A stretch of DNA of 59,217 nucleotides from Candidatus Nomurabacteria bacterium (GTDB lineage: Bacteria; Patescibacteriota; Minisyncoccia; Phycocordibacterales; UBA9973). This document shows positions 1 to 13,878 of this stretch, piece by piece. The notes beneath the pieces were generated by a model. The model was not told where the DNA came from. It was given only the letters and a program-made list of their open reading frames with translations, and did not search any database. The stretch is taken from assembly GCA_943359485.1 (NCBI GenBank), contig CALRHR010000003.1, positions 1 to 59,217 on the forward strand, given 5' to 3'. The translations under genes and the position numbers were made by a program. Position 1 is the first letter of the stretch. Each line of letters begins with the position of its first letter.

Positions 1-1
1 C

Positions 2-352
2 CAATTAAGGGAAAGCTTTTCAAGCAAGAAAGACCAACCCAATGGGGTTACCAAAGTATTATTGAAAATGAAGCACCCCGCCGGTTATGAACATATATCA
101 AAAATTGAACCATTGCTCATTTACTGGATGCCCATTTCGGCAGATGAAAATATATTTGAGCCATTTTCCACTGTTTCTTTGAAAAATTTTGATTTGCCCA
201 CTATCACCACTGAATTTTCAGAACTCCACATTTTTTCCGTGTCCCTATACCTGCGCCAATTATTCAAAAGACAAAATTACATTGATTTGGACTTACCACA
301 TCTTGAACGAAGAATTAAGACGTTGTCCAGCTTACAAAACCTAAATAACTAG
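2..352 (+). CDS. hypothetical protein, 5' end outside window
   Basis: Reading frame is open from base 2 (QLRESFSSKKDQ..) into the listed 62..352 ORF. No recognisable motif. Confidence 0.3.
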   Translation, partial: QLRESFSSKKDQPNGVTKVLLKMKHPAGYEHISKIEPLLIYWMPISADENIFEPFSTVSLKNFDLPTITTEFSELHIFSVSLYLRQLFKRQNYIDLDLPHLERRIKTLSSLQNLNN

Positions 353-702
353 GAGAGTTGGAATTCCCTCATTTCTTTTTTTAGGCTTTCCATTTCCTTT
401 ATTACTTTTTTATACAATTTTGATTTTTTCTTTACTTCTTTTTTGTCTTTGCTTTGAAAACTCTCTATCAAAAAATCCACGTTCTCATCGCTGACGAATG
501 AGGCCAGTGATATATAAGCGCTAGCTAAAAGCCGGATTCGTTCTTTTATTGACCGCTTCAGTTTTACCTTGGAAGTTGGCAGAGAGGAAATGCGGTTTAG
601 GATGCAGTCCTCAAATTCATCCTCGAACCTGTAATGCTCGGCTTTTTTAATGACTTCCTCAATATCATCCATTCCTAATGGATGACGCTGATTAGCTTGC
701 AA
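349..702 (-). CDS. hypothetical protein (ATG at 672 is a more likely start than TTG at 702)
   Basis: 117-aa ORF rich in charged residues, no recognised domain. The internal MDDIEEV start uses ATG. Confidence 0.35.
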   Translation of the reverse strand: MQANQRHPLGMDDIEEVIKKAEHYRFEDEFEDCILNRISSLPTSKVKLKRSIKERIRLLASAYISLASFVSDENVDFLIESFQSKDKKEVKKKSKLYKKVIKEMESLKKEMREFQLS

Positions 703-739
703 GTCCAGACTCTAAAGCCTAGAAATAATAAATAATTTG

Positions 740-1030
740 TAAATGAGACAGCGCCTAAAACGGCCTTTTAGTGTCTCATCTGTAGCATTCACAAAAATCT
801 AGCCCCTACCGAGAGGGCTAATTATGATATACTGAAATTGCTGAAAGAACCCTTACAACGTCTCACCTTACAATTTCCGAGACCGTGAGGGGGCACCACA
901 CCTAAAACAAGCCCACTGCTGGGCTTTTTTAGTGTGTGGTGCCGACCGCAGTGCTGTTTTGTCAGTAGACAAAACCACGAGGGGCGGGTCGTTCTGACTC
1001 TGAGAGTCATCAGACTCGAATGAGCTTGCG
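740..1030. other. GC-rich, densely hairpinned intergenic block (possible small RNA or stacked repeat units)
   Basis: Hairpins: ATGAGACAGCGCCTAAAACGGCCTTTTAGTGTCTCAT (745-781) and GGCACCACACCTAAAAC..AGCCCACTGCTGGGCT..TTTTAGTGTGTGGTGCC (~885-938). Also GTTTTGTCAGTAGACAAAAC, then a CTCTGAGAGT..CAGACTCGAATGAG unit (994-1024). Confidence 0.3.
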
Positions 1031-1034
1031 AAAA

Positions 1035-1054
1035 TTTTCTGCGACGGCAGAAAA
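1035..1054 (-). terminator. putative rho-independent terminator downstream of holA-like gene
   Basis: TTTTCTGC-GACG-GCAGAAAA, an 8-bp stem with tetraloop. On the minus strand it is followed by TTTTCG. Confidence 0.45.
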
Positions 1055-1098
1055 TTATTTGTAGTCACAAAAAAGATTTTTGCCATCATAACTGGTTT

Positions 1099-1755
1099 TT
1101 AGAAAACTTCAAGCAAAAACTTTTCAAAAACTGCTTCAGCATCGAGGCCTTGCTTACGAGCCTGTGGTAATAGATAGCTTAGTTTGGCAGCAGAATTTTT
1201 AAGTTCAGTTTCGGAGAATTTTCGAAAATCTTTTTTTAAAATCATATCTTTGATTTTCCAAAAAAGTACCCCTATAAGCTCCTCCATCCCTACCCCCCGA
1301 GATATGGCCTGGCGAAAATAAATCCAAAGATTTAGTTTATCCTTAACTGAGAAAGCATTCGCTACTAGAAAATTATCAAACTTCTCTTTTTTTTCTTTAG
1401 GTAATTCGAAAATATTAATCTGAAGTTTATTCGACTCTACCTTTTTAAAAGCGTCAAGTATTAATTTGTTTAACTTACCCTCTGAAAAGATAAAAAGATT
1501 GGAAGATTCACCCATTAAATCTAATTTTTCTAAGACAAATTCCCGAGTTTCTTCGTGTTCAAAGATATTTTCAAAAACCACCGCGGACAAAGACGAAAAG
1601 AGGCTGGCTCCAGAATACAAGTTCTCCAGCTCCATCTCATCGAAATTATTTCTGTTAATATGAAAATTAACTGCGCCCTTTGGTATAGATTTTATGAATT
1701 TTTCATAATTTAGGCTTTTGTTTTTAACATCATCGCCATAAAAAAGGTAGATCAT
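1099..1755 (-). CDS. holA: DNA polymerase III delta subunit-like protein (short form)
   Basis: N-terminus MIYLFYGDD.. and overall helical layout resemble the HolA clamp-loader delta subunit. At 218 aa it is shorter than the E. coli protein. Confidence 0.5.
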   Translation of the reverse strand: MIYLFYGDDVKNKSLNYEKFIKSIPKGAVNFHINRNNFDEMELENLYSGASLFSSLSAVVFENIFEHEETREFVLEKLDLMGESSNLFIFSEGKLNKLILDAFKKVESNKLQINIFELPKEKKEKFDNFLVANAFSVKDKLNLWIYFRQAISRGVGMEELIGVLFWKIKDMILKKDFRKFSETELKNSAAKLSYLLPQARKQGLDAEAVFEKFLLEVF

Positions 1756-1758
1756 GTT

Positions 1759-2253
1759 TTAAAATTTTACTAATTTTTTGTATTCTTGATAAGCCGTCCC
1801 ATATTTCTCTTCCAGAATTTTATGATACTTATCAACAAATAAAAATTTAGAAATTAAAAAGGCAACAATCATCGAAAGAATTACAAAGAATGAATTAGTA
1901 ACGATTCCAAATCCTAAAATTAACAAAAGAAGCCCGCAGTGGGTCGGAATGCGAGTATAACGATACGGTCCACGATAAAAATGTTCAGCTCTTTTTTCTG
2001 CTACCTTGGTAAGCTCGTTTCCAGACTTCTGTGCCCAGATTATTAGGGCAGTGGATAATATCAAGAAAAAAAGCCCGACCGGCACCATGACAGAATCCGC
2101 AAAAATTTTTACTTTAAAAATGATATCAAGACCAACCCCCACCAAAAGCAATACAAAATAAACCGTATATGAATGGGCTAAAATCTTGTGTACATTATTC
2201 TTATGTGGATTTTCGCTTAGAGTTTCCATATTTATATTATAGCATAAATTCAA
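1759..2253 (-). CDS. isoprenylcysteine carboxyl / phospholipid methyltransferase family membrane protein
   Basis: Multi-TM protein with RGPYRYTRIPTHCGLLLL, matching the GPYRxxRHPxYxG signature of the ICMT/PEMT family. Confidence 0.6.
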   Translation of the reverse strand: MNLCYNINMETLSENPHKNNVHKILAHSYTVYFVLLLVGVGLDIIFKVKIFADSVMVPVGLFFLILSTALIIWAQKSGNELTKVAEKRAEHFYRGPYRYTRIPTHCGLLLLILGFGIVTNSFFVILSMIVAFLISKFLFVDKYHKILEEKYGTAYQEYKKLVKF

Positions 2254-2266
2254 CTATTTTTCTTCA

Positions 2267-2287
2267 GTGAGGACTTTAGACCCTCAC
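2267..2287. repeat. REP-like hairpin, family A, inverted orientation (GTGAGGACTTTAGACCCTCAC)
   Basis: 6-bp stem GTGAGG/CCTCAC around the CTTTAGA core. It lies in the last codons of the transposase-like ORF. Confidence 0.6.
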
Positions 2288-2761
2288 TAGGAAGTTCATC
2301 GAACTCTTCTAGGCCAGTCTTTCCTCTTTCCCTTCTAATAAGGTTAACAATTTCGTCGCAATGCTTCTTTAATTCATTTTTACCACCAAAAACTTTTAGC
2401 ATATCTTTGCCTTCAGTTTCTGAAACAAAATCAAAATTACCATTTTTATACTCTGTATCACTAGCAAAAACAAACTGTGTTTTGTTCTTTGGAATATTAT
2501 GCACATCATAATTTTTATTTACATAGGCAAATGTTTTACGAAAATAATTTTCGTTTTTAATTAGCTTAGACTTGAAAGTTCCTTGGAATAAGGAACCTGC
2601 TCTTTGGTGTCTTAGATTAAAATAAGAAGTATATCCTCCTTGGAATTTTTGCAAAAACTTAGCTATGCCGCCATCCATTAATTGTTTTAATAAAAAGTGA
2701 AAATGATTAGGATTAATACAAAAAGCAACAATCGCTACAAGTGGCTTTGACTGCTCTCGAT

Positions 2762-2778
2762 GAGGGTCTAAAGCCCTC
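2762..2778. repeat. REP-like hairpin, family A (GAGGGTCTAAAGCCCTC)
   Basis: Stem GAGGG/CCCTC with loop TCTAAAG. Its outer stem base lies 11 nt from the in-frame stop of the transposase-like gene. Confidence 0.6.
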
Positions 2779-2977
2779 TCTGAGATTGATTAATGATACA
2801 TCTCCAAACTTCCTATCGCTTTAATTTGATTAAACTGCTTAATGCTTTCTTTTAAGCGCGCAATGTCTTTTAAGTTGCTAACTATGTCGCGCTTGTCTAC
2901 CCCCCTATTATAGATATGATAATACTCCCCTGTTACAAGTGGTTCTTTTCTCATATATAATAGTATAACACAACAAA

Positions 2978-2998
2978 GTGAGAGTCTAAAGCTCTCAC
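2978..2998. repeat. REP-like hairpin, family A (GTGAGAGTCTAAAGCTCTCAC)
   Basis: Perfect 7-bp stem with TCTAAAG loop, just upstream of the transposase-like start (2954). Confidence 0.65.
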
Positions 2999-3006
2999 TG
3001 GGTAAT

Positions 3007-3046
3007 AAACATAAATACGACCCGTGAATAGGTCGCATTTATGTTT
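3007..3046 (-). terminator. long hairpin, probable terminator of ORF 3090..3431
   Basis: AAACATAAATACGACC-CGTGAATA-GGTCGCATTTATGTTT, with 15 of 16 stem positions paired and T-rich flanks on both strands. Confidence 0.45.
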
Positions 3047-3089
3047 CTTTTATTCCACTTTCTTCTAGGATTTAAAACACATTAACAAA

Positions 3090-3431
3090 CTACATATTTT
3101 CCAAAATCGTTACCGAAATTGAGATGTTACTTGCTGGTGAAACAACTTCTGCGAACAAAGAACCCAATCTTTTTCTCGCATCGTTGGATATATTTGGGTC
3201 CCTAAGTAAAGGGAGATTAGTTTTAAAAAATTCACCCCTAACTCCAAGTTTTGTTCTACACTTTTCACGCAGAGAATCCATTTCTGATTTTGTAGCGTTA
3301 GGATTATGGATGCAACTTTCTAACTCTCCAGACAAAGAATCAACTTCTGTTTGAAACTCATCAATTCTTGCATCAATATCTTCATTTGTGTGTTCTGGAG
3401 TCGCTCCCGGTGGTATTCCTTCCATTCCCAT
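3090..3431 (-). CDS. hypothetical protein
   Basis: 113-aa ORF, acidic and helical, no recognised motif. Confidence 0.35.
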   Translation of the reverse strand: MGMEGIPPGATPEHTNEDIDARIDEFQTEVDSLSGELESCIHNPNATKSEMDSLREKCRTKLGVRGEFFKTNLPLLRDPNISNDARKRLGSLFAEVVSPASNISISVTILENM

Positions 3432-3574
3432 AAATTTTTTTTAATTAAATTTATAATTTCGACCTTTCTGGAAGTTTTATAGAGTCTTGCCAATCTCTTT
3501 ATATTTATTGTAGACATAATAACATACTTTATTTCTTATTTCCATTTTCCCCTTTAGATAAAAAATACTAACCA

Positions 3575-3595
3575 GTGAGAGTCTAAAGCTCTCAC
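3575..3595. repeat. REP-like hairpin, family A (GTGAGAGTCTAAAGCTCTCAC)
   Basis: Identical 21-mer to 2978-2998, located 4 nt downstream of the polA stop. Confidence 0.65.
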
Positions 3596-3598
3596 CGA

Positions 3599-6106
3599 TT
3601 ATTTAACTTCCTCTAAATTGTCCCCAAACCCAGAATGCACACTAAGCGGTATATCTGTTTTATAATGCAAATATGATCTTTCTAAAACACTTTCCATTGC
3701 ATTTTTTATTATTTTATCAGCTTTTTCTAAGATATTTTCTTCTACTTCGTATACTAACTCATCGTGTATTTGAAGTACAAGGTGAACTTTATCTAAAATC
3801 CCCATACTTTGCAAATCCTCTTCCACATATCTAATAGCTAGCTTGATGATGTCTGCAGTAGCAGTCCCCTGAATCGGTGCGTTAGTCGCAGTCCGCTCCG
3901 CCATACTTTTCAAAAAAGGAATTCTAGAATTTATATTCGGGAAATATCTGCGTCGACCAAATAAAGTTTCAGTGTAAGAATTTTTTAAAGCAAATTTTTT
4001 CGTTTCCTCTAAATACTCCTGCACACCGGAGAACTGCTGGAAATAATTGTCATAAAATTTCTGTGCTTCCTCCCGTGTACCACCCAGATTTTTCCGCAAA
4101 GAGGAAACCCCCATACCATAAATAATACCAAAATTTATAACTTTTGCCTTTCGACGCATTTCAGCATCGACTTTTTCTAAAGGAACCCCAAAAACAAAAG
4201 AAGCAACCCCCGCATGAATATCCTTTTTATCTCGAAAAATTTCTGTCATTTTTTTATCTCCCGAAAGCATCGCTGCCACCCGTAGCTCAATCTGACTATA
4301 ATCATACGCGCAAAGTTTATATCCTTTTTGAGCAACAAATCCTCCCCGAATTCTCTTGCCGAGTTCTGTCTTGATTGGTAAATTTTGTAAATTCGGATCC
4401 TGTGAAGAAAATCTTCCTGTTGTAGTATTGTTTTGTAAAAACTTGGCATGCAATCTTCCATCTTTATGAGTCATTTTAGGAATTACATCAATATAAGTAG
4501 AAAGTAGCTTCTGTAATTCTCGATAAGCCATAATTTCTTTGATAATTTCGTTTTCATCTTCTAATTCTTCTAAAACGGAAATTTTAGTAGAGAAATTGCC
4601 ACTTGCACTTTTCTTCGTTGATTTTCCCGGGGACTTGAGACCTAGTTTCCCAAAAAGAATCTCCCCTAATTGTTTGGGTGAATTTATATTAAACTCAGTA
4701 CCGGCCATTTTGTAAATTTCTTTCGTTAATTTATCTAATTCTCCATGGTATTCCTTTGAAAGCTTTTCAAAATATTTTTTATCTATCAGAATTCCATGGT
4801 CTTCCATTTCTTTTACTATGTGTATTATCGGTTGTTCTATTTCGCTGTAGACTTTATCCAACTTTTCCTCTTTTAATTTTTTAAAAATATATTCATAAGC
4901 TACATCAAATGAATCACTTCCAGCAAACATCAAAATGTCTCCTTGATTTGGGTTGCTTATGTCAGAATTTAGAAGCCATAATGCAATACTAGCTTCTTGG
5001 AGCTTGGTGGGGTCTGTTTCAAAATGCTGATTTTTAGAATTTTGGATTGGACTAGTTGGAATTTGGACCCCATGGTTTGGAATTACAGATTTCGAAAGGA
5101 TATCAGAAAATTCCGCTAAACCAGATTTTTCATTTTTGTTAAAAAAATTCTTTAGCCGCATAAACAAACTTCTAAACTCAAATTTCATGAACATTTGTTC
5201 TACCTTCTTTGGATCCGCATTTTCCCAAAACGACTTCTCTGGTATTTTAAAATCAATCGGTGCATCAGTACGAATCGTCGCTAAAGTTTTAGAAAAAATA
5301 GCCTCTTCTCGGCCTTCCTTTATTAGCTTTAGCATTCTATCTGTCAGGCCGACCCCGAGTAGGATCGAGGGGTTCTTATCTAATTGTTTATAAATCTCTT
5401 CTATCGTCCCAAAATTGACAATAAGGGTTTGCGCTGTTTTCTCCCCAATACCCTTTATCCCTTTAATGTTGTCTGACGGGTCTCCTCGCAAACCTTTGTA
5501 ATCCGGCAGGAGTTTGGGTCGAAACCCAAACCTTTCCACAACTTTTTCTTCATCATATAAAATAGTGTCGTTAATTCCTTTTTTCAAAGTATAAACTTGT
5601 ACTTTCTTGTCATCCACTAATTGCATTGTATCCATATCACCAGAAGCAATAATGATATTTAGACCCCCACCCAGCCTCCCCCTTAATAAGGGGGAGGTGT
5701 CAGAATGACGGAGGGGGTTCTTCATTTTCTCAACTATAGTCCCCAAAATATCATCTGCCTCAAATCCCGGCGCATCATAAATGGGAATATTGAACGCTTC
5801 GAAAATTTGCCGGGAATTTTTAAGCTGAGTGATAAGTGCCTCATCTGCCTTAATTCTCCCCTCTTTATACTCTTTATATGCTTCGTGCCGAAAAGTTTTC
5901 CCAGGCAAGTCATAACAAGCCACCATATAGTCCGGCTTGAGATCCGTCACGATTTTCATCAGCATACTGGAAAGTCCGTACAAGGCCCCTGTCGGCTCGC
6001 CTTTAGACGACAAGAACTCTGGCAAGGCATGATAAGCCCGGTGGATTATGGCATGAGCATCAAGCAATATTAAGGTTTTTTTCTTATCATTATTTTCTTT
6101 AGACAT
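3599..6106 (-). CDS. polA: DNA polymerase I
   Basis: 835 aa. N-terminal 5' nuclease domain (LILLDAHAIIHRAYHA, GFEADDILGT) and C-terminal family A polymerase motifs (DYSQIELR, QIHDELV). Confidence 0.95.
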   Translation of the reverse strand: MSKENNDKKKTLILLDAHAIIHRAYHALPEFLSSKGEPTGALYGLSSMLMKIVTDLKPDYMVACYDLPGKTFRHEAYKEYKEGRIKADEALITQLKNSRQIFEAFNIPIYDAPGFEADDILGTIVEKMKNPLRHSDTSPLLRGRLGGGLNIIIASGDMDTMQLVDDKKVQVYTLKKGINDTILYDEEKVVERFGFRPKLLPDYKGLRGDPSDNIKGIKGIGEKTAQTLIVNFGTIEEIYKQLDKNPSILLGVGLTDRMLKLIKEGREEAIFSKTLATIRTDAPIDFKIPEKSFWENADPKKVEQMFMKFEFRSLFMRLKNFFNKNEKSGLAEFSDILSKSVIPNHGVQIPTSPIQNSKNQHFETDPTKLQEASIALWLLNSDISNPNQGDILMFAGSDSFDVAYEYIFKKLKEEKLDKVYSEIEQPIIHIVKEMEDHGILIDKKYFEKLSKEYHGELDKLTKEIYKMAGTEFNINSPKQLGEILFGKLGLKSPGKSTKKSASGNFSTKISVLEELEDENEIIKEIMAYRELQKLLSTYIDVIPKMTHKDGRLHAKFLQNNTTTGRFSSQDPNLQNLPIKTELGKRIRGGFVAQKGYKLCAYDYSQIELRVAAMLSGDKKMTEIFRDKKDIHAGVASFVFGVPLEKVDAEMRRKAKVINFGIIYGMGVSSLRKNLGGTREEAQKFYDNYFQQFSGVQEYLEETKKFALKNSYTETLFGRRRYFPNINSRIPFLKSMAERTATNAPIQGTATADIIKLAIRYVEEDLQSMGILDKVHLVLQIHDELVYEVEENILEKADKIIKNAMESVLERSYLHYKTDIPLSVHSGFGDNLEEVK
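5664..5717. repeat. GC-rich hairpin element (family D) inserted in frame in polA
   Basis: CCTCCCCCTT-AAT-AAGGGGGAGG (5675-5697) within a GC-rich patch. It encodes ..RHSDTSPLLRGRLGGGL.. between the conserved EADD and SGDxD segments. Confidence 0.7.
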
Positions 6107-6144
6107 TATGTAAATTGTAGCATTTAAGGTACAATTTATGTATT

Positions 6145-7842
6145 ATGTTGGATTTTGACGATGAAAAGCAAAAAAAACAACTGGAGGACTTGTATAAACA
6201 AGAAGAAGAAGATCTGGTGGCAAGCTTAGCGGAATCAAAATATCATATTCCCTATATCAATCTCTATCAAGTAACCATAGACAATGAAGCCCTTCGCGCC
6301 ATATCAGAAAAAGATGCAACTGAAATGAATGTTGCACCTTTTAAGCTTTTTGGGAAAAATATTTATATTGCTATCCGTTCACCATCTCCCAATCTTTTTA
6401 AAACCCTTAAAGAAATAGCCGAGAGGCATGGTTTGGTTGCCAATTTTTACATGGCTTCAATGGCAAGCTTGAAAAAAGTCTGGGAAAGATATAGAGAGAT
6501 TTCCATGGCAGAAAGTTCACAGGTTGGAGGATTGGAAATTTCTGGAGAAGTTTTAAAAGAAATTGCAAAAAACATCAACCACATCCAAGATATTGAAAAA
6601 CTAGTAACAGAAGCATTGGAAGGAAATAAAATTCATAAAATTTCCAAACTACTTGAAATAATTTTAGCTGGAGCCATTGCCATAAAAGCCTCTGACATCC
6701 ACATTGAACCGGAAAAAGATAGAGGTAGACTACGACTTCGTTTAGATGGCATACTAACAGATATAAATTTCTTCGGATTGAATGTATACCATTTGCTCAA
6801 CTCTCGCATCAAGCTTCTCTCTGGTATGAAATTAAGTTCCAAAATAGCGCAGGATGGACGGTTTAGTATTATGAAAGGAGAAGAGGAATTAAATATTCGT
6901 ACTTCGCTGATTCCAGGAGCCTACGGCGAAAGTATCGTTATGCGTATCCTCGATCCAAAATCCATCCAAGTTCCGTTTGAAGAACTTGGCATTGAACCAT
7001 ACCTTTTTGAAATCGTCAAAGAAGAAATCGCCAAGCCAAATGGCATGATTTTGGTTACCGGTCCGACTGGATCCGGAAAAACCACCACCCTTTACGCATT
7101 TTTGAAAAAAATATATTCAACAGAAATAAATATCATCACCATCGAGGACCCGATAGAATACCATCTGCCCGGTATAACTCAAACCCAAATAAACCTCGAT
7201 AAGGGATACTCGTTCCCCGAAGGGCTCCGTTCTAGCTTGCGTCAAGATCCGGATGTAATAATGGTCGGAGAAATTCGTGACAGCGATACGGCAGATATAG
7301 CCGTGCAGTCTGCCCTCACTGGACACATGGTCTTCTCTACCCTTCACACCAACAATGCCGCCGGTGTTATCCCCCGACTCATCGATCTTGGAGTCAATCC
7401 AAAGATTATGGTTTCAGCGCTCTCTCTATCCATAGCTCAGCGTTTGGTCCGCAAGCTATGTAAATTTTGCAAAAAGGAATCTGACCCCAATGCAGATGAA
7501 ACTAAAAAAATACAACTTATCTTGGATGGTATGAAAATGGAAGGCAAAGATTTCTTAAAACACAATATTAACATAGATAAATCTTTTAAAATTTTTTCTC
7601 CCACGGGTTGTGAAAAATGCAATAACACAGGCTACAGTGGGCGTATTGGGATATTTGAAGCAATCCAAACAGACGAAACCATAGAAAAAATAATGCCAGA
7701 AAATCCAAGCGAAAGAGAAATAAAAAAAGTGGCAAGCAAACAAGGTATTTTATCTATGCGCCAAGATGGCATTGTAAAAATCTTAAACGGTATTACTTCA
7801 CTCGAAGAAGTGGCAAGTGTAGTGGATCTACAAGAAGAGTAG
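6145..7842 (+). CDS. pilB: GspE/PilB-family secretion/type IV pilus assembly ATPase
   Basis: T2SSE N-terminal domain, Walker A GPTGSGKTT, and Asp/His boxes. C-terminal tetracysteine CKFCKKE..CEKCNNTGYSGRIGIFE. Confidence 0.9.
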   Translation: MLDFDDEKQKKQLEDLYKQEEEDLVASLAESKYHIPYINLYQVTIDNEALRAISEKDATEMNVAPFKLFGKNIYIAIRSPSPNLFKTLKEIAERHGLVANFYMASMASLKKVWERYREISMAESSQVGGLEISGEVLKEIAKNINHIQDIEKLVTEALEGNKIHKISKLLEIILAGAIAIKASDIHIEPEKDRGRLRLRLDGILTDINFFGLNVYHLLNSRIKLLSGMKLSSKIAQDGRFSIMKGEEELNIRTSLIPGAYGESIVMRILDPKSIQVPFEELGIEPYLFEIVKEEIAKPNGMILVTGPTGSGKTTTLYAFLKKIYSTEINIITIEDPIEYHLPGITQTQINLDKGYSFPEGLRSSLRQDPDVIMVGEIRDSDTADIAVQSALTGHMVFSTLHTNNAAGVIPRLIDLGVNPKIMVSALSLSIAQRLVRKLCKFCKKESDPNADETKKIQLILDGMKMEGKDFLKHNINIDKSFKIFSPTGCEKCNNTGYSGRIGIFEAIQTDETIEKIMPENPSEREIKKVASKQGILSMRQDGIVKILNGITSLEEVASVVDLQEE

Positions 7843-7898
7843 CCCTTCGCTATGCTCAGGTCATTCAAACTCTGAGAGTTTTCAGACTCGAACGAGGT
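7843..7898. repeat. family B repeat (..CTCTGAGAGTTTTCAGACTCGAACGAG..)
   Basis: Shares CTCTGAGAGT-N-TCAGACTCGAAYGAG with 994-1024 and, in reverse complement, with 10081-10135. Confidence 0.55.
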
Positions 7899-7930
7899 GA
7901 TTTTTAAAAAATAAAAATCAAATAAAAAAA

Positions 7931-8073
7931 GCATTAATCTCTAAACAATCCTTTCGAAGCTAGGCTCCAAGAGTAACAAATTATTATAGGATAGATCCAG
8001 TGAACTAATAAAAGTACCAAATCGTCCTACGCAAACTCGTATAACCAGTGGCTGATTGCTTAGAGATTAATGC
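7931..8073. repeat. 143-bp element bounded by 20-bp terminal inverted repeats (MITE-like or structured RNA)
   Basis: GCATTAATCTCTAAACAATC (7931-7950) versus GATTGCTTAGAGATTAATGC (8054-8073), complementary at 19 of 20 positions. Confidence 0.5.
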
Positions 8074-8182
8074 TCTCTAATGAATACATTTTACTACATA
8101 TAAAATATAGCAAATGCTATAATGTGTATAGCTATGTTAATAGCATGTGTATAAATGTACTATTTGCATAGTATAGCACAAT

Positions 8183-9223
8183 ATGGATAAAAAGTCAACC
8201 CCAAAAACAAAAGACTCGGCAGGTAAGACTGAGGACTCATTCCTAGACACCACTCTCCGCCCAAGAGTCTGGGATGAATATATCGGCCAAAAACACATAA
8301 AAGACAATGTGAAGATTCTATTGCGGGCGGCTCTAGAGCGAGGACACATCCCCGAGCATATTCTTTTTTATGGGCCACCAGGACTCGGCAAGACTACCCT
8401 TGCACACTTGATTGCCAAGGAAACTGGCCGACAGATGAAAATAACTTCCGGGCCAGCCATAGAAAAAGTTGGCGACTTGGCTTCCATTCTGACCAATCTA
8501 TCTCCAGGTGACATTCTTTTTATAGATGAAATTCACCGTCTAAACAGAATGGTGGAAGAGATTCTCTACCCCGCGATGGAGTCTGGCGTACTCGACATCA
8601 TTATAGGCAAGGGTCCTTCGGCTCGAACCATTCAGCTTGACCTCCCTCCCTTTACACTCATTGCTGCCACCACTCGCGTGGCGCTCGTATCCTCACCTTT
8701 GCGTTCTCGATTCTCTGGTGGAGTTTTCCGATTAGAATTTTATTCGAATGAAGAGATTGCTCAAATTATAGACAGATCCAGTAAACTTTTAGAAATTGTA
8801 TTCGACAAAGACGCCTTAGAAGAAATAGCCAAGAGAAGCCGGTTCACTCCACGCACGGCAAATTATTTTTTAAAAAGAGTTCGCGACTTTGCGCAAGTAA
8901 ATAAAAAAACTGAAGAAAAATACTTAAATAAACAAACAGTCAAAGATGCATTAAATATGCTAGCCATAGATGATATCGGGCTAAACTCATCAGATAGAAA
9001 ATTTTTGGAAATACTTATAGAAAAATTTAATGGTGGACCTGTGGGACTCAAAACCATCAGCGCGGCTATGTCAGAAGAAGAAGCCACAGTAGAAGAAGTG
9101 ATAGAGCCATACCTAATCCAGCTCGGGCTCCTCGAACGCACCGCCCGCGGTCGTGTAGCGACAAAGAAAGCGTACGAGCATTTGGGGTTTAAACAGGAAA
9201 CTGAACAAGAAAAACTTTTATGA
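8183..9223 (+). CDS. ruvB: Holliday junction branch migration helicase RuvB
   Basis: RPRVWDEYIGQ, Walker A GPPGLGKTT, Walker B IDEIHRL, and a C-terminal winged-helix region typical of RuvB. Confidence 0.95.
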   Translation: MDKKSTPKTKDSAGKTEDSFLDTTLRPRVWDEYIGQKHIKDNVKILLRAALERGHIPEHILFYGPPGLGKTTLAHLIAKETGRQMKITSGPAIEKVGDLASILTNLSPGDILFIDEIHRLNRMVEEILYPAMESGVLDIIIGKGPSARTIQLDLPPFTLIAATTRVALVSSPLRSRFSGGVFRLEFYSNEEIAQIIDRSSKLLEIVFDKDALEEIAKRSRFTPRTANYFLKRVRDFAQVNKKTEEKYLNKQTVKDALNMLAIDDIGLNSSDRKFLEILIEKFNGGPVGLKTISAAMSEEEATVEEVIEPYLIQLGLLERTARGRVATKKAYEHLGFKQETEQEKLL

Positions 9224-9717
9224 GAATTTTAGGAATAGACCCGGGGTATGAAAGGTTGGGCATAGCAGTTTTAGAACAGCCCCACTACGCTGAAGCTTCG
9301 CGGGGTGGAAAAAAACACACAGTGGTTTTTTCCGAATGTTTTAAAACTTCCAGTAAGTTAGAATTTTCTCGGAGGTTGTCTTTGATTGGTGAAGAAATAA
9401 AAAATGTAATAAAAAAATACAAGCCGGAAGTGCTAGCGATTGAATCATTATTTTTAAATACCAATCAAAAGACAGTGATGCGCGTGGCGGAAGCCCGCGG
9501 TGTAGTGGTATATGAAGCTGCGCAAGCGGGATTAAAAATTTTCGAAGCTACCCCGCTACAAATAAAAATAGCCACCACAGGTTATGGTCGCGCAGATAAA
9601 ACACAGGTCATGAAGATGACCAGAATTTTGGTAAAAATAGATGATTCTAAAAAGTCAGACGACGAACTCGACGCTATCGCCATTGCTTTAACTATTTTTG
9701 CACATAAAAAATTTTAG
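9220..9717 (+). CDS. ruvC: crossover junction endodeoxyribonuclease RuvC
   Basis: MRILGIDPGY.., AIESLF, DELDAIAIAL catalytic acidic signature. Overlaps the ruvB stop by 4 nt. Confidence 0.9.
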   Translation: MRILGIDPGYERLGIAVLEQPHYAEASRGGKKHTVVFSECFKTSSKLEFSRRLSLIGEEIKNVIKKYKPEVLAIESLFLNTNQKTVMRVAEARGVVVYEAAQAGLKIFEATPLQIKIATTGYGRADKTQVMKMTRILVKIDDSKKSDDELDAIAIALTIFAHKKF

Positions 9718-9720
9718 AAC

Positions 9721-9852
9721 CTAAACATCTTTATCTGGATCTTCTTCATCTAAACCAAAATCTTCATGCATACCTTCTGGTATCTCTAATTCTGCATCTT
9801 CATCATCATTGATCTTAAAACCACTATTTACTTCATCATCATCGTAACTCAT
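9721..9852 (-). CDS. small highly acidic hypothetical protein
   Basis: Start taken at the internal ATG (MSYDDDEVNSG..DEEDPDKDV). The upstream part of the listed ORF runs through a hairpin (9918-9939). Confidence 0.2.
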   Translation of the reverse strand: MSYDDDEVNSGFKINDDEDAELEIPEGMHEDFGLDEEDPDKDV

Positions 9853-10080
9853 ATTATAAAAATTTTTTATTAAATAAAAGGGATTAAACCTTATGTTACG
9901 ACTTCGACTCGGACATTGTGAGTGAGAATACTCACTCACATGCTCCTTACTTATCGTAATAAGCGACCTAAAAATAAACTTCTGATTAATTTCCTACTTT
10001 GTAGCAAAATAAAAAAGTCTTGGCAATAGAAAATGTGGATAACTCCCAATTTTTTATTTTTGGAGAAAATTTTAAAAATT

Positions 10081-10135
10081 GAGGATCTCATTCGAGCCTG
10101 AGACTCTCAGAGCCGATGGCCCGAATGTAATAAGG
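10081..10135. repeat. family B repeat, reverse orientation
   Basis: The reverse complement reads ..GGCTCTGAGAGTCTCAGGCTCGAATGAGATCCTC. Confidence 0.55.
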
Positions 10136-10142
10136 GATAATT

Positions 10143-11339
10143 TTAGATTAAAATCTTAACAAACCTTTTTTTGCCTATTTTAAGGGTTAAATTCTGTGAA
10201 ATTTTCAGATTCACATCTGTAATATTTTTGTCTTGAATTAAATCATGAACAGCATTTTCCAACACCAACCTGCGCCATTCACTCTTGGAAGATAAAATCT
10301 TATTTTTTACCAGAAACTCAGAAAGAAGCTCCCCTGTTTTTGCTTTTATTTCTTCTATTTCATCTGGAATTTCTTTTTTCTGGAAAGTGTTTTCCCAAAC
10401 TTCTTGCGCTTTTTTAGCTTGGTTGATATTATTTAAATCTTTGACAATCTCAAAGGCTAGGAGTTTTTTATTTTCTAAAGGATTTTTATTTGGAATTTCG
10501 CCCATCGGTATACTAGTTAGAGATTCAAAGCATTGTGAAATTGTTTCATCTGGAAAAGCCATTATTTTACCAAATAGGTTTTCTGGTTTATCATCTATGG
10601 CAATCGCATTACCTTCGGTTTTACCTATTTTTACACCCTGACTATCTTCCAAAAGTTTGGTGGTCATAACAAATTTTTCTTTCTTTAAAATTTGTTTCAT
10701 TAGTTTTCGACCCATCATCATATTAAACATTTGATCTCTACCACCGACTTCCAAATCAACATCCATAGCAACGGAATCGTAAGCTTGCATAACCGGATAT
10801 AAAAATTCGCTAGTAGCAATATCTTGGCCCCGTTTTAATCTTTCTTGAAACATGTCTCTCTCGATGACCTGGCTATATGTTAAATTCCCTGCAATTTCTA
10901 AAAATTCTAATGCGCTTAGTTTTCCAAGCCAATCTCCATTGAAAAGTACTTGTACCGGGTTATCACCATCAAATTTCAAAATTTTAGAAGCTTGATGTTG
11001 GTAGTTCTTGGCATTAGCAAGAGTTTCTTTATGAGTAAGAACTTTTCTAGAAGAAAGTTTCCCGGAGGGATCACCTATCCTTGCAGTATAGTCGCCAATC
11101 AAAAATATAACGTGATGCCCAAGTGCTTGCCACTCTGCAAGCTTTTTCAAACCCACCATATGCCCAATATGAAGCTTATCCCCTGTTGGGTCAAATCCTT
11201 GATATAACCTAAGCTTTTTGCCAGAACGCAAAACTTTTTCCAAGTCTTCTTTTGAGGGATAAATCTTATCTACCCCCCGGGTCAGTAATTCACTTATTTT
11301 GTCAGTATTTTCTGAATGCATATTCGGATTATAGCACAT
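10143..11339 (-). CDS. tyrS: tyrosine--tRNA ligase
   Basis: HIGH motif (LHIGHMVG), GGRDQMFN, KMSKS-equivalent KIGKT, and a C-terminal S4-like domain. 398 aa. Confidence 0.9.
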   Translation of the reverse strand: MCYNPNMHSENTDKISELLTRGVDKIYPSKEDLEKVLRSGKKLRLYQGFDPTGDKLHIGHMVGLKKLAEWQALGHHVIFLIGDYTARIGDPSGKLSSRKVLTHKETLANAKNYQHQASKILKFDGDNPVQVLFNGDWLGKLSALEFLEIAGNLTYSQVIERDMFQERLKRGQDIATSEFLYPVMQAYDSVAMDVDLEVGGRDQMFNMMMGRKLMKQILKKEKFVMTTKLLEDSQGVKIGKTEGNAIAIDDKPENLFGKIMAFPDETISQCFESLTSIPMGEIPNKNPLENKKLLAFEIVKDLNNINQAKKAQEVWENTFQKKEIPDEIEEIKAKTGELLSEFLVKNKILSSKSEWRRLVLENAVHDLIQDKNITDVNLKISQNLTLKIGKKRFVKILI

Positions 11340-11361
11340 TTTCTGTTATGATTAACCTTAA

Positions 11362-13878
11362 ATGAAAAAGTTGTTAAAAACTAATAGACTATTAAGAAAT
11401 TTATTGTGGTTTGGCGCGGGTGTTTTCGTTTTAGTGACAGGACTAGTGATTTTCTGGCTTGCTTCATTCCAAATTCCAGACTTCCATTCTTTTAATAACA
11501 GAAGAGTCGAAAGTTCCACAAAACTATATGATCGCACAGGAGAAATTTTGCTCTACGATATTCACCGTGATGTTAAAAGAACTGATATATCTTTTGAAAA
11601 CATGGGGATAAATATTAAAAATGCCACAGTAGCCATTGAGGATTCCGAGTTTTATAACCATAGTGGAGTCCGAATAACTTCTACTATTCGCGCAATTCTT
11701 TCAAATATATTTGGCTTTGGAATAGGCGGTGGTGGTTCAACCATCACCCAACAACTAGTAAAGAACACTCTTTTAACAAAAGAGAAATCTTACACCCGTA
11801 AAATAAAGGAGTGGGTTTTGGCGACTAAAATAGATAAGACTTTGTCGAAAGAAAAAATTCTTGAATATTATTTAAATGAGGCTCCGTATGGAGGCACGGT
11901 TTATGGTATTGAAGAAGCCAGTAAAACTTATTTTAATAAAAGTGCATTAGACTTAACACTAGCTGAAGCGGCATATCTCGCTGCCATCCCACAGTCCCCG
12001 ACCACACTCTCGCCTTATGGTAAGAACAAAGATAAATTGGAAACTAGAAAAAATTTAGTGCTTTCAAGAATGCTCCAAATAAATTTTACAACACAGGAAG
12101 AACATGATAAAGCAAAAAGCGAAACAGTGTTATTCATACCCCAGGATACAACTGGAATCAAGGCACCTCATTTCGTTTTCTTTATTAAAAATTATTTAGA
12201 AGAAAAATATGGAAGTGAACTGGTGGAAAAAGGCGGACTGAAAGTTACCACTACTCTGGATTATAAATTACAAGAGGTGGGAGAAAAAATAGTGAAAGAG
12301 GGAGCGTTAAAAAATGAAAAAGACTGGGATGGAAACAATGCCTCTTTGGTATCCATAGACCCAAAAACGGGACAGATTTTGACTATGGTGGGATCAAGAG
12401 ATTATTTTGATAAGAATATTGATGGAAATTTCAATGTCGCCACCGCCCTACGACAACCAGGGTCTTCTTTTAAACCCTTTATTTACGCTACAGCTTTCAA
12501 CAAGGGTTTTACAGCGGATACTGTACTCTTTGACCTACCTACAGAATTTCAGACAACCTGTGACCCTTATGGTAGGGCTTTGGCAGGACACAATCAAAAA
12601 GATTGTTATATGCCGGAAAATTATGATGGTAAAACTCGCGGACCGATGAGCTTGCGAGATGCTTTGGCTCAATCAATCAACATCCCGGCGGTAAAACTTT
12701 TTTATCTAGTGGGTATGACAGATGCATTAAAGACTGCAGAAGATATGGGTATAAATTCATTAGGTGCTATCGGTCGGTACGGACTTACACTTGTTATTGG
12801 GGGTGGAGAAGTATCATTGCTCGATATGTCGTCGGCTTTTGGGGTTTTTGCAAACGACGGAGTTCGAAATCCACATACAGGAATTTTAAAAATTGAAGAT
12901 CTTAACGGAAAAATTTTAGAAGAATATCAACCAACTCTACGCAAAGTTCTACCCAAAAATACAGCACTCCTTATCTCTGCTATTATGTCGAATGAAAAGG
13001 CCCGTACGCCAACTTTTGGGATACATTCAGCTCTGTACATACCTGGGAAGGATGTGGCAGTAAAAACTGGAACAACTAACAACAATAAAGATGCCTGGAC
13101 TATCGGCTACACCCCATCAATTGTGGTTGGAGTTTGGGCCGGCAATAATGATAATAAACCAATGAAAAAGGGTGGAGTTAGTTTAGCTGGACCGATTTGG
13201 AATAAATTTATAAGTGAAGCGCTGAAAACATTACCAGATGATAAATTTGAAGAACCAGATCTAGAAATTGACCCACTATTAGTAAAACCAGTACTTCGGG
13301 GTTTTTGGCAAGGCAACGAAAATTTTTTCATAGATAAAATTTCAGGTAGATTGGCAACAGAACTGACTCCTAGAGAAACTTTACAGGAAAAAGTGATTAC
13401 CAATGTGCATTCGATTTTGTACTGGGTAAATAAAAAAGACATTACTGGACCACCACCTCCCAATCCAGAAAAAGACCCACAATTTAATCACTTTGAAATT
13501 CCTGTGCAGAATTGGTGGAGGGAAAACAAAGGGAGATACCCAATTACAACCTTCGAAGACAAACCAACCACAACAGACAATGTGCATACTGAAAAATCAA
13601 AACCATCAATTACTATCCTTGAGCCTAATGAAAATAAAATTTATAAATCTGACCAAAAAATAAGATTAAGATTTTCTAATTCTAGCCCTTACCCTATAAC
13701 CAAAATGGATATTTTTGTTAACAATTCATACCTCGGAACTTTAAATGGAACTTCCGACTTTTCTTTTACTCCTGCCGAATTAGAAAATTTACAGAAAAAT
13801 AATGAACTCAAAATAGTAGCCTACGATAATGTTTACAACACTAGCGAAACTTCTTTAATATTTAAAGTACAAAATTAG
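11362..13878 (+). CDS. bifunctional penicillin-binding protein 1A (glycosyltransferase + transpeptidase)
   Basis: N-terminal TM segment, GT51 motif EDSEFYNHSGV, and transpeptidase motifs SSFKP and KTGTT. C-terminal Ig-like extension. Confidence 0.9.
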   Translation: MKKLLKTNRLLRNLLWFGAGVFVLVTGLVIFWLASFQIPDFHSFNNRRVESSTKLYDRTGEILLYDIHRDVKRTDISFENMGINIKNATVAIEDSEFYNHSGVRITSTIRAILSNIFGFGIGGGGSTITQQLVKNTLLTKEKSYTRKIKEWVLATKIDKTLSKEKILEYYLNEAPYGGTVYGIEEASKTYFNKSALDLTLAEAAYLAAIPQSPTTLSPYGKNKDKLETRKNLVLSRMLQINFTTQEEHDKAKSETVLFIPQDTTGIKAPHFVFFIKNYLEEKYGSELVEKGGLKVTTTLDYKLQEVGEKIVKEGALKNEKDWDGNNASLVSIDPKTGQILTMVGSRDYFDKNIDGNFNVATALRQPGSSFKPFIYATAFNKGFTADTVLFDLPTEFQTTCDPYGRALAGHNQKDCYMPENYDGKTRGPMSLRDALAQSINIPAVKLFYLVGMTDALKTAEDMGINSLGAIGRYGLTLVIGGGEVSLLDMSSAFGVFANDGVRNPHTGILKIEDLNGKILEEYQPTLRKVLPKNTALLISAIMSNEKARTPTFGIHSALYIPGKDVAVKTGTTNNNKDAWTIGYTPSIVVGVWAGNNDNKPMKKGGVSLAGPIWNKFISEALKTLPDDKFEEPDLEIDPLLVKPVLRGFWQGNENFFIDKISGRLATELTPRETLQEKVITNVHSILYWVNKKDITGPPPPNPEKDPQFNHFEIPVQNWWRENKGRYPITTFEDKPTTTDNVHTEKSKPSITILEPNENKIYKSDQKIRLRFSNSSPYPITKMDIFVNNSYLGTLNGTSDFSFTPAELENLQKNNELKIVAYDNVYNTSETSLIFKVQN

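Follow-up and report, generated by a model that had tools for sequence, protein, structure and literature searches.

A 59,217-nucleotide stretch of DNA from a Candidatus Nomurabacteria bacterium (the window; contig C3 of a genome of 713 kb in 20 contigs, 99.8% complete and 38% G+C) carries, between polA and a PEMT-like membrane protein gene, a Y1 HUH gene of the RAYT/IS200 type (RAYT, REP-associated tyrosine transposase; REP, repetitive extragenic palindrome) that is broken and is bracketed by its cognate hairpins in the manner of a REPtron. We consider it about 80% probable that this locus is a compact REPtron-type unit with a gene-private hairpin and that the window copy of the unit was recently inactivated. 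Such a unit would pair the gene of a RAYT-like (TnpA-REP-like) Y1/HUH single-strand DNA nuclease with a perfect palindrome of its own, and the family has copies of this palindrome at fixed sites. One lies some 45 nt ahead of the ATG, in the promoter -35 region; one is in frame near +170 nt, in a surface loop that precedes the HUH strand; a further copy directly follows the catalytic Tyr helix, near +445 nt, in some members; and the last is over or just past the stop codon. The enzyme would bind and cut its own folded hairpin, and either short-patch conversion or copying by the enzyme would maintain the likeness of the copies; the promoter copy may permit autoregulation, and the 3' copy may serve as stop codon and terminator. 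The additional hairpin past polA is a duplicate; the 576-bp insert that it brackets is confined to this lineage.

The nuclease gene and its hairpins

A preliminary description of the window, made from its sequence, had placed a Y1 frame at 2250-2954 with YHIYNRG near the N-terminus, an HFHFLL motif and one in-frame TAA at 2790-2792, and translation of 2954->2250 agrees with it in each of these features. The read-through product scores 27.6 bits against Pfam Y1_Tnp (PF01797, cut-off 23), which passes the gathering threshold for membership in this superfamily and bears out the family assignment of the description; the piece after the stop by itself scores 26.6 bits, and the same profile detects all five paralogues in the genome, four of them above cut-off. 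An alignment of 33 family members, the window copy counted, has 20 invariant columns that include the H-x-H and Y-x3-N motifs; H84, H86, Y144 and N148 are invariant in 33/33, and the window copy has kept all 20. The best NCBIfam model is REP_Tyr_transpos (NF047646) in 33/33 members, and IS200 is found in only 2/33, weakly. The REP_Tyr_transpos scores are 30.4 bits for the window product, 36 bits for the paralogue on contig C7 and 30-36 bits among the members, with a best E-value of 1e-15 among the 33.

The AlphaFold model of the read-through product has a mean pLDDT of 88.5. It places Y144 on helix 135-146, and residues 58-65, which are coded by the internal hairpin, across the last part of helix 50-60 and a low-confidence loop behind it, ahead of the HUH-bearing strands (pLDDT 74-81); the tail past residue 214 is disordered and of low confidence. 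Foldseek against the Protein Data Bank ranks 4ER8 (E. coli TnpA-REP with bound REP hairpin) first and then the IS608 and ISDra2 TnpA proteins, and its top 20 are chains of these three with target-normalised TM-scores of 0.52-0.67. As modelled, the product has a RAYT-type fold with its catalytic residues in position.

The hairpin 21-mer, GTGAGAGTCTAAAGCTCTCAC (GTGAGAG-TCTAAAG-CTCTCAC), is present exactly at 2978-2998 and 3575-3595, and at 2267-2287 there is an opposite-strand match with three mismatches and an inverted loop; shuffles of the window contained no match to it. The internal hairpin lies 11 nt past the TAA, at the +170 nt site typical of the family. All four hairpins of the preliminary description are therefore there, two exact, one with three mismatches and one, at 2762-2778, degenerate, and its view of the locus as a RAYT gene bracketed by cognate hairpins as in a REPtron holds for this broken Y1 gene and its hairpin copies.

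Hairpin positions in the gene family and the genome

Are such hairpin positions found beyond the window copy? Homologous loci were collected both within the genus and across other families of the order, and 41 non-redundant loci were scored (below, G, C and L numbers designate genomes, contigs and loci). A perfect hairpin lies no more than 100 nt upstream of the start (at about 45 nt) in 34 of the 41. Within these 34 loci it is repeated at or just past the stop codon in 32, at +160 to +190 nt in 18 and at +432 to +477 nt in 7, and a reversed-pattern control over the scored loci gave one match in total. The sequence of the hairpin varies between elements and is near-identical among the copies of any one element. 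For example, a compensatory stem change, GTTAGGG...CCCTAAC, is present in 6/6 copies in G132, and in G093 a stem-breaking arm, ATAAGAG, is common to the upstream and internal copies and is not found in the 3' copy; this shared broken arm points to copying between sites rather than to selection on each stem alone. Compared with the upstream copy, the internal and 3' copies are inverted in some loci and not in others, and the orientation flips between orthologues.

The genome of the window has five Y1 genes, each flanked by its own hairpin. The gene on C7 is intact and 60% identical, with 224 codons from a conserved MRKQP start (237 from an upstream GTG of the open frame), and its palindrome, CAGCGCC-TTA-GGCGCTG, occurs before the start, internally at the equivalent place and across the last codons. 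An intact paralogue, for which the preliminary description had suggested looking, thus exists, and its palindrome is a different one. The paralogues on C1, C9 and C4 likewise each have their own flanking palindrome. The family is very abundant in Patescibacteria (Nomurabacteria, Paceibacterota), with 1-14 genes per genome of ~0.6 Mb; the window protein has roughly 2,300 homologues on record, and their public names point to Candidatus Nomurabacteria / Paceibacterota. The paralogues of a single genome share 30-60% identity and differ in their hairpins.

The internal hairpin has its counterpart at the equivalent position of intact family genes, so it is inherited family architecture and not an invasion. 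The preliminary description had supposed that the hairpin invaded its own transposase gene, and a fuller form of this idea is that the enzyme spread its REP genome-wide and that one REP inserted in the enzyme's own gene and aided its inactivation. The closeness of a hairpin copy to the premature stop (11 nt) agrees with such a course of events, as do the in-frame REP insertions documented in tnpA-REP genes of subclass 2.4 (PMC6006769). However, an in-frame copy at +160 to +190 nt is found in 18/34 loci, and intact paralogues as well as orthologues have it at this place with no length difference. The stop arose outside the hairpin, from the change of one base in a Lys codon, and the hairpins of this genome do not form a genome-wide family. 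We give this explanation almost no credence. There is a lesson here for annotation, namely that an in-frame palindrome in such a gene does not equal damage.

Genome-wide, the window hairpin is found at the four sites of the locus and at one distant site, C12:19385, and is not a large REP family; among 212 genomes of the genus, 13 have hairpins of this type, up to seven copies each (G548, G552). The preliminary description would have been refuted by a hairpin that occurs nowhere else in the genome, and with a single distant copy this genome comes close to that case; across the genus the hairpin is dispersed. The copies in G548 and G552 include inverted doublets and copies within unrelated open reading frames (ORFs), and the cognate gene of G552 is intact and shows the layout in full. 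The distant copy (C12:19385-19405) has a perfect 10-bp stem and lies in frame within a reverse transcriptase gene, where it codes SESLKLSL; 13 orthologues of this reverse transcriptase have the same length at the hairpin site and read SENLKLSL, NENLKLSL and similar, and the hairpin is also present at this site in G116 and G104 (three species in all). Since the length of the reverse transcriptase is unchanged, the hairpin looks, from these alignments, to have overwritten a look-alike sequence rather than to have inserted. At C12:18625-19617 (L084:4626-5621) a bAvd-like gene stands beside the reverse transcriptase, and the pair is probably a diversity-generating retroelement.

The hairpins of two of the paralogues are also found apart from their genes. 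The C9-type hairpin, TACAAGG-TCTTG-CCTTGTA, forms close inverted doublets that are REPIN-like and away from the gene at C2:75122-75164 and C9:24404-24445, and the C1-type hairpin has dispersed single copies at C5:38178 and C12:15174. At L099 (G548:C32), 1517-2252 holds a homologue that matches only residues 67-222 of the window protein and has a hairpin copy on either side; this family member, too, has probably decayed or been decapitated.

Two further links that the preliminary description had drawn were not sustained. It had related a hairpin at 9918-9939 to the one discussed here; this is a perfect 9-bp-stem hairpin, GTGAGTGAG-AATA-CTCACTCAC, in a 425-nt intergenic stretch (9718-10142), and it has only GTGAG/CTCAC in common with the RAYT hairpin and no evident relation to it. 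It has no Rfam match, and an Rfam scan of window positions 1-12000 as a whole gave none. The other link was a mobilising enzyme shared with the repeats called family C, by way of a CTAAAGC core; this 7-mer is the junction of two tandem GCCTAnn heptamers. The family C units are tandem arrays of these heptamers, have a different architecture and in no case flank a Y1 gene.

Consensus scans bear on what the noncoding copies might do. The -35-like TTTAGA of a promoter-like site is supplied by the loop of the 2978-2998 hairpin, and both polA-side hairpins are terminator-like, that at 2978-2998 for orf113 (the ORF of the insert described below) and that at 3575-3595 for polA. With 7 nt between the end of the -10 element and the ATG, the mRNA of the window Y1 gene may be leaderless. 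At 2227-2249 and in the polA-downstream regions of L053-L081, gene starts lie 7-9 nt past a -10 box extended by TG (TGnTAnAAT) and no Shine-Dalgarno sequence intervenes, which suggests that leaderless mRNAs are common in the genus.

The terminator-like form of both polA-side hairpins and the overlap of the proximal one with the promoter-like site would also suit an explanation in which the palindromes are ordinary regulatory elements (terminators, operators) unrelated to the Y1 protein and repeated through local duplication. We regard this as very improbable, since it leaves unexplained the in-frame copies at two fixed coding positions, the element-specific sequence with identity among an element's own copies, and the dispersed copies inside unrelated ORFs; moreover, the solved structure that comes closest shows a nuclease with just such a hairpin bound.

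The polA site and the lesions of the window copy

The features of the locus are listed in Table 1.

Table 1. Coordinates of the Y1 gene, its hairpins and the adjoining features in the window
Feature	Position	Strand	Remarks
RAYT-like Y1/HUH nuclease gene	2250..2954	minus	234 codons with one stop read through
In-frame TAA, codon 55	2790..2792	minus	AAA or AAG (Lys) in 3 syntenic orthologues
Promoter-proximal hairpin	2978..2998		Perfect 7-8 bp stem, 7-nt loop; its end is 23 nt before ATG
Internal in-frame hairpin, degenerate	2760..2780		5-bp stem, 4/21 positions differ; codes SERALDPH
3' hairpin	2267..2287		Loop inverted relative to upstream copy, 3 mismatches; read through as SEGLKSSL
Distal hairpin duplicate	3575..3595		3 nt past polA stop; same sequence and orientation as 2978-2998
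Promoter-like site	2962..2990	minus	TTTAGA, 17 nt, TG-extended TATACT; -10 ends 7 nt before ATG
Lineage-specific insert, 576 bp	2999..3574	minus	Between two identical hairpins; orphan orf113 (3090-3431)
polA, upstream neighbour	3599..6106	minus	Directly abuts PEMT-like gene in most species of genus
PEMT-like membrane protein gene, downstream neighbour	1759..2253	minus	Probable ATG at 2229; other side of empty site

The Y1 unit is absent between polA and the PEMT-like gene in 25 of the 29 other species of the genus that were checked, and in these empty sites the PEMT-like promoter and start lie about 10-40 nt past the polA stop; the site is filled in four species. A polA tree is poorly resolved with respect to one gain plus losses versus several gains, and G114 and G093 are its only supported sisters. 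Syntenic orthologues are present in G114, G131 and G093 in the order polA, Y1 gene, PEMT-like gene, orf218, and their proteins are 72-79% identical to that of the window. All three are open frames, and the internal hairpin is present in them in degenerate form.

A site filled in four species and empty in 25 is what would be expected if the unit were an autonomous IS200-like element of ~730 bp from hairpin to hairpin, with the hairpins as its ends, that moves whole via a single-stranded circle. The 1-14 family genes per ~0.6-Mb genome, the hairpins at both ends with the same orientation in many loci, and the fold matches to the IS608 and ISDra2 TnpA proteins are in keeping with this as well. 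On the other hand, the paralogues are only 30-60% identical and have different hairpins, no identical or near-identical copies were seen within genomes, the orthologues are syntenic across species, the flanking hairpins are often inverted and flip orientation between orthologues, and the hairpin is dispersed alone, without the gene. In addition, REP_Tyr_transpos is the best profile in 33/33 members (IS200 in 2/33), and the best fold match is 4ER8. We thus hold an autonomous IS200-like element to be unlikely and a compact REPtron-type unit to be the better description.

The junction between polA and the Y1 gene differs among the species in which the site is filled. In the window it holds the 576-bp insert, whose orf113 is a putative coding ORF; it belongs to no Pfam family, homologues were found neither in this genome nor among the collected loci, and 400 genomes of the order gave one weak match and nothing else. 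An AT-rich inverted repeat at 3004-3049 (19-nt arms that are 89% complementary, 8-nt loop) lies downstream of orf113, where it adjoins the GC-richer RAYT hairpin, and is possibly orf113's own terminator. The same junction has a single hairpin and no insert in G114, an unrelated 178-aa methyltransferase gene between two hairpin copies in G131, and a different small ORF with a 24-nt diverged duplicate of the polA 3' end in G093. At this last site (L043, G093:C5, about 805-1290) the insert lies downstream of polA and is followed by the 24-nt duplicate, and it looks as if a foreign segment with its own polA end had recombined in. Exactly one unrelated ORF is bracketed by hairpin copies also upstream of L020, L024, L025, L038 and the C9 paralogue and downstream of L023. 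These cases are anecdotal, and they are suggestive of an association of gene insertion with the hairpins; different single-gene inserts between duplicated hairpins at one site hint at a part of the hairpin in gene gain. The varied single-ORF inserts at the polA-RAYT junction and the six other bracketed loci are the grounds on which one might go further and picture the RAYT-proximal hairpin as a recombination site that captures single genes, loosely attC/attI-like and served by the Y1/HUH nuclease, a proposal that we consider unlikely.

How was the window copy broken? The TAA is a separate, one-base change of a conserved Lys codon, outside the hairpin. The 3' end has a second small lesion: the TGA stop of all three orthologues sits in the 5' arm of the 3' hairpin, and in the window one base is missing just before this arm, so the frame goes 12 codons further, through the hairpin. 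The hairpin that the preliminary description had placed inside the last codons is indeed at 2267-2287, and it is within the frame only through this loss of one base. The TAA also stands in another public assembly record, a contig of 150 kb that agrees with the window at 100% identity over 3,429 bp, which is not independent proof of the stop; the gene is called there as fragments of 82 and 142 aa, and a second annotation lesson is that these are two parts of one broken gene. No near-identical intact protein was found among public records, the closest being 80% identical. Further genes of relatives had seemed to contain a single in-frame TAA, but these stops are terminal, read through by the search, and not internal. 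By these alignments the window copy is most likely a recently inactivated orthologue.

Several points weigh against reading the locus as a compact REPtron-type unit with a recently inactivated window copy. All members miss the curated equivalog cut-off of REP_Tyr_transpos (80 bits), and a sequence search of the Protein Data Bank, with the single protein and with the family profile, gave nothing significant (best match E = 0.28, on the HUH strand). The hairpin has 3-7 copies per genome, far fewer than classical REP families. The binding and cutting of the hairpin is argued by analogy with 4ER8-type relatives, the suggested roles of the promoter and 3' copies come from consensus scans, and the TAA was called from an assembled consensus.

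The role of RAYT enzymes and the matching of enzyme to hairpin are still-open questions in the field. The present family offers very small self-contained units, each with one gene and 3-5 private hairpins, and many diverged enzyme-hairpin pairs in a tiny genome, so that specificity, co-evolution and possible autoregulation are testable with short oligonucleotides. The window copy contributes dated lesions (one nonsense change and one 1-nt loss) and exact empty sites in close relatives.

Comparison with known systems

REPtrons, in which cognate REPs flank a RAYT gene, are an established arrangement (PMC3333891, PMC3479197, PMC8266576). The family described here is like E. coli TnpA-REP (RAYT, YafM; 4ER8) in being a single-domain Y1/HUH gene bracketed by palindromes presumed to be recognised, in having 4ER8 as best fold match and REP_Tyr_transpos as best profile, and in that each enzyme lineage has its own palindrome type. 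It differs from the E. coli REPtron in that the hairpin copies are 3-7 per genome and mostly at the gene, whereas the REPtron has hundreds. Its palindromes are perfect and have no bulge, and the window hairpin has no conserved GTAG foot; some copies are within the coding sequence or across the stop codon; and one tiny genome can have up to about 14 diverged genes of the family. The high-copy dispersal by which RAYT/TnpA-REP systems are recognised is not seen, there being five copies in this genome, four of them at the locus, and a maximum of seven in the genus.

The nearest precedent for the in-frame copies is TnpA-REP subclass 2.4 (Bertels RAYT group 4), in which REPs are found in frame inside the tnpA-REP gene (Quentin et al. 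2018, PMC6006769). As in that subclass, cognate REPs lie in the enzyme's own gene, with the frame intact, in peripheral variable regions, and some relatives here (L014, L038) have 'double-foot' GTAG...CTAC palindromes. Unlike in subclass 2.4, the copies occupy fixed sites, one ahead of the HUH strand (+170), one past the Y helix (+445) and one at the stop codon, and do not lie between the two motifs. Subclass 2.4 was reported mainly from Cyanobacteria and Bacteroidetes (PMC6006769); that paper makes no mention of Parcubacteria, and PMC8266576 makes no mention of in-frame REPs.

With the TnpA proteins of IS200/IS605 elements (IS608, ISDra2) the family shares the fold and catalytic motifs and hairpins near both ends of a ~0.7-kb unit. 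In contrast to those elements, it has no identical multi-copy elements (the five paralogues are 30-60% identical), its hairpins are perfect, often inverted and also internal, and its orthologues are syntenic. The family is distinct from the known systems in its fixed hairpin sites, its perfect gene-private palindromes, its very low copy number, its many diverged genes per tiny genome, and its occurrence in Patescibacteria.

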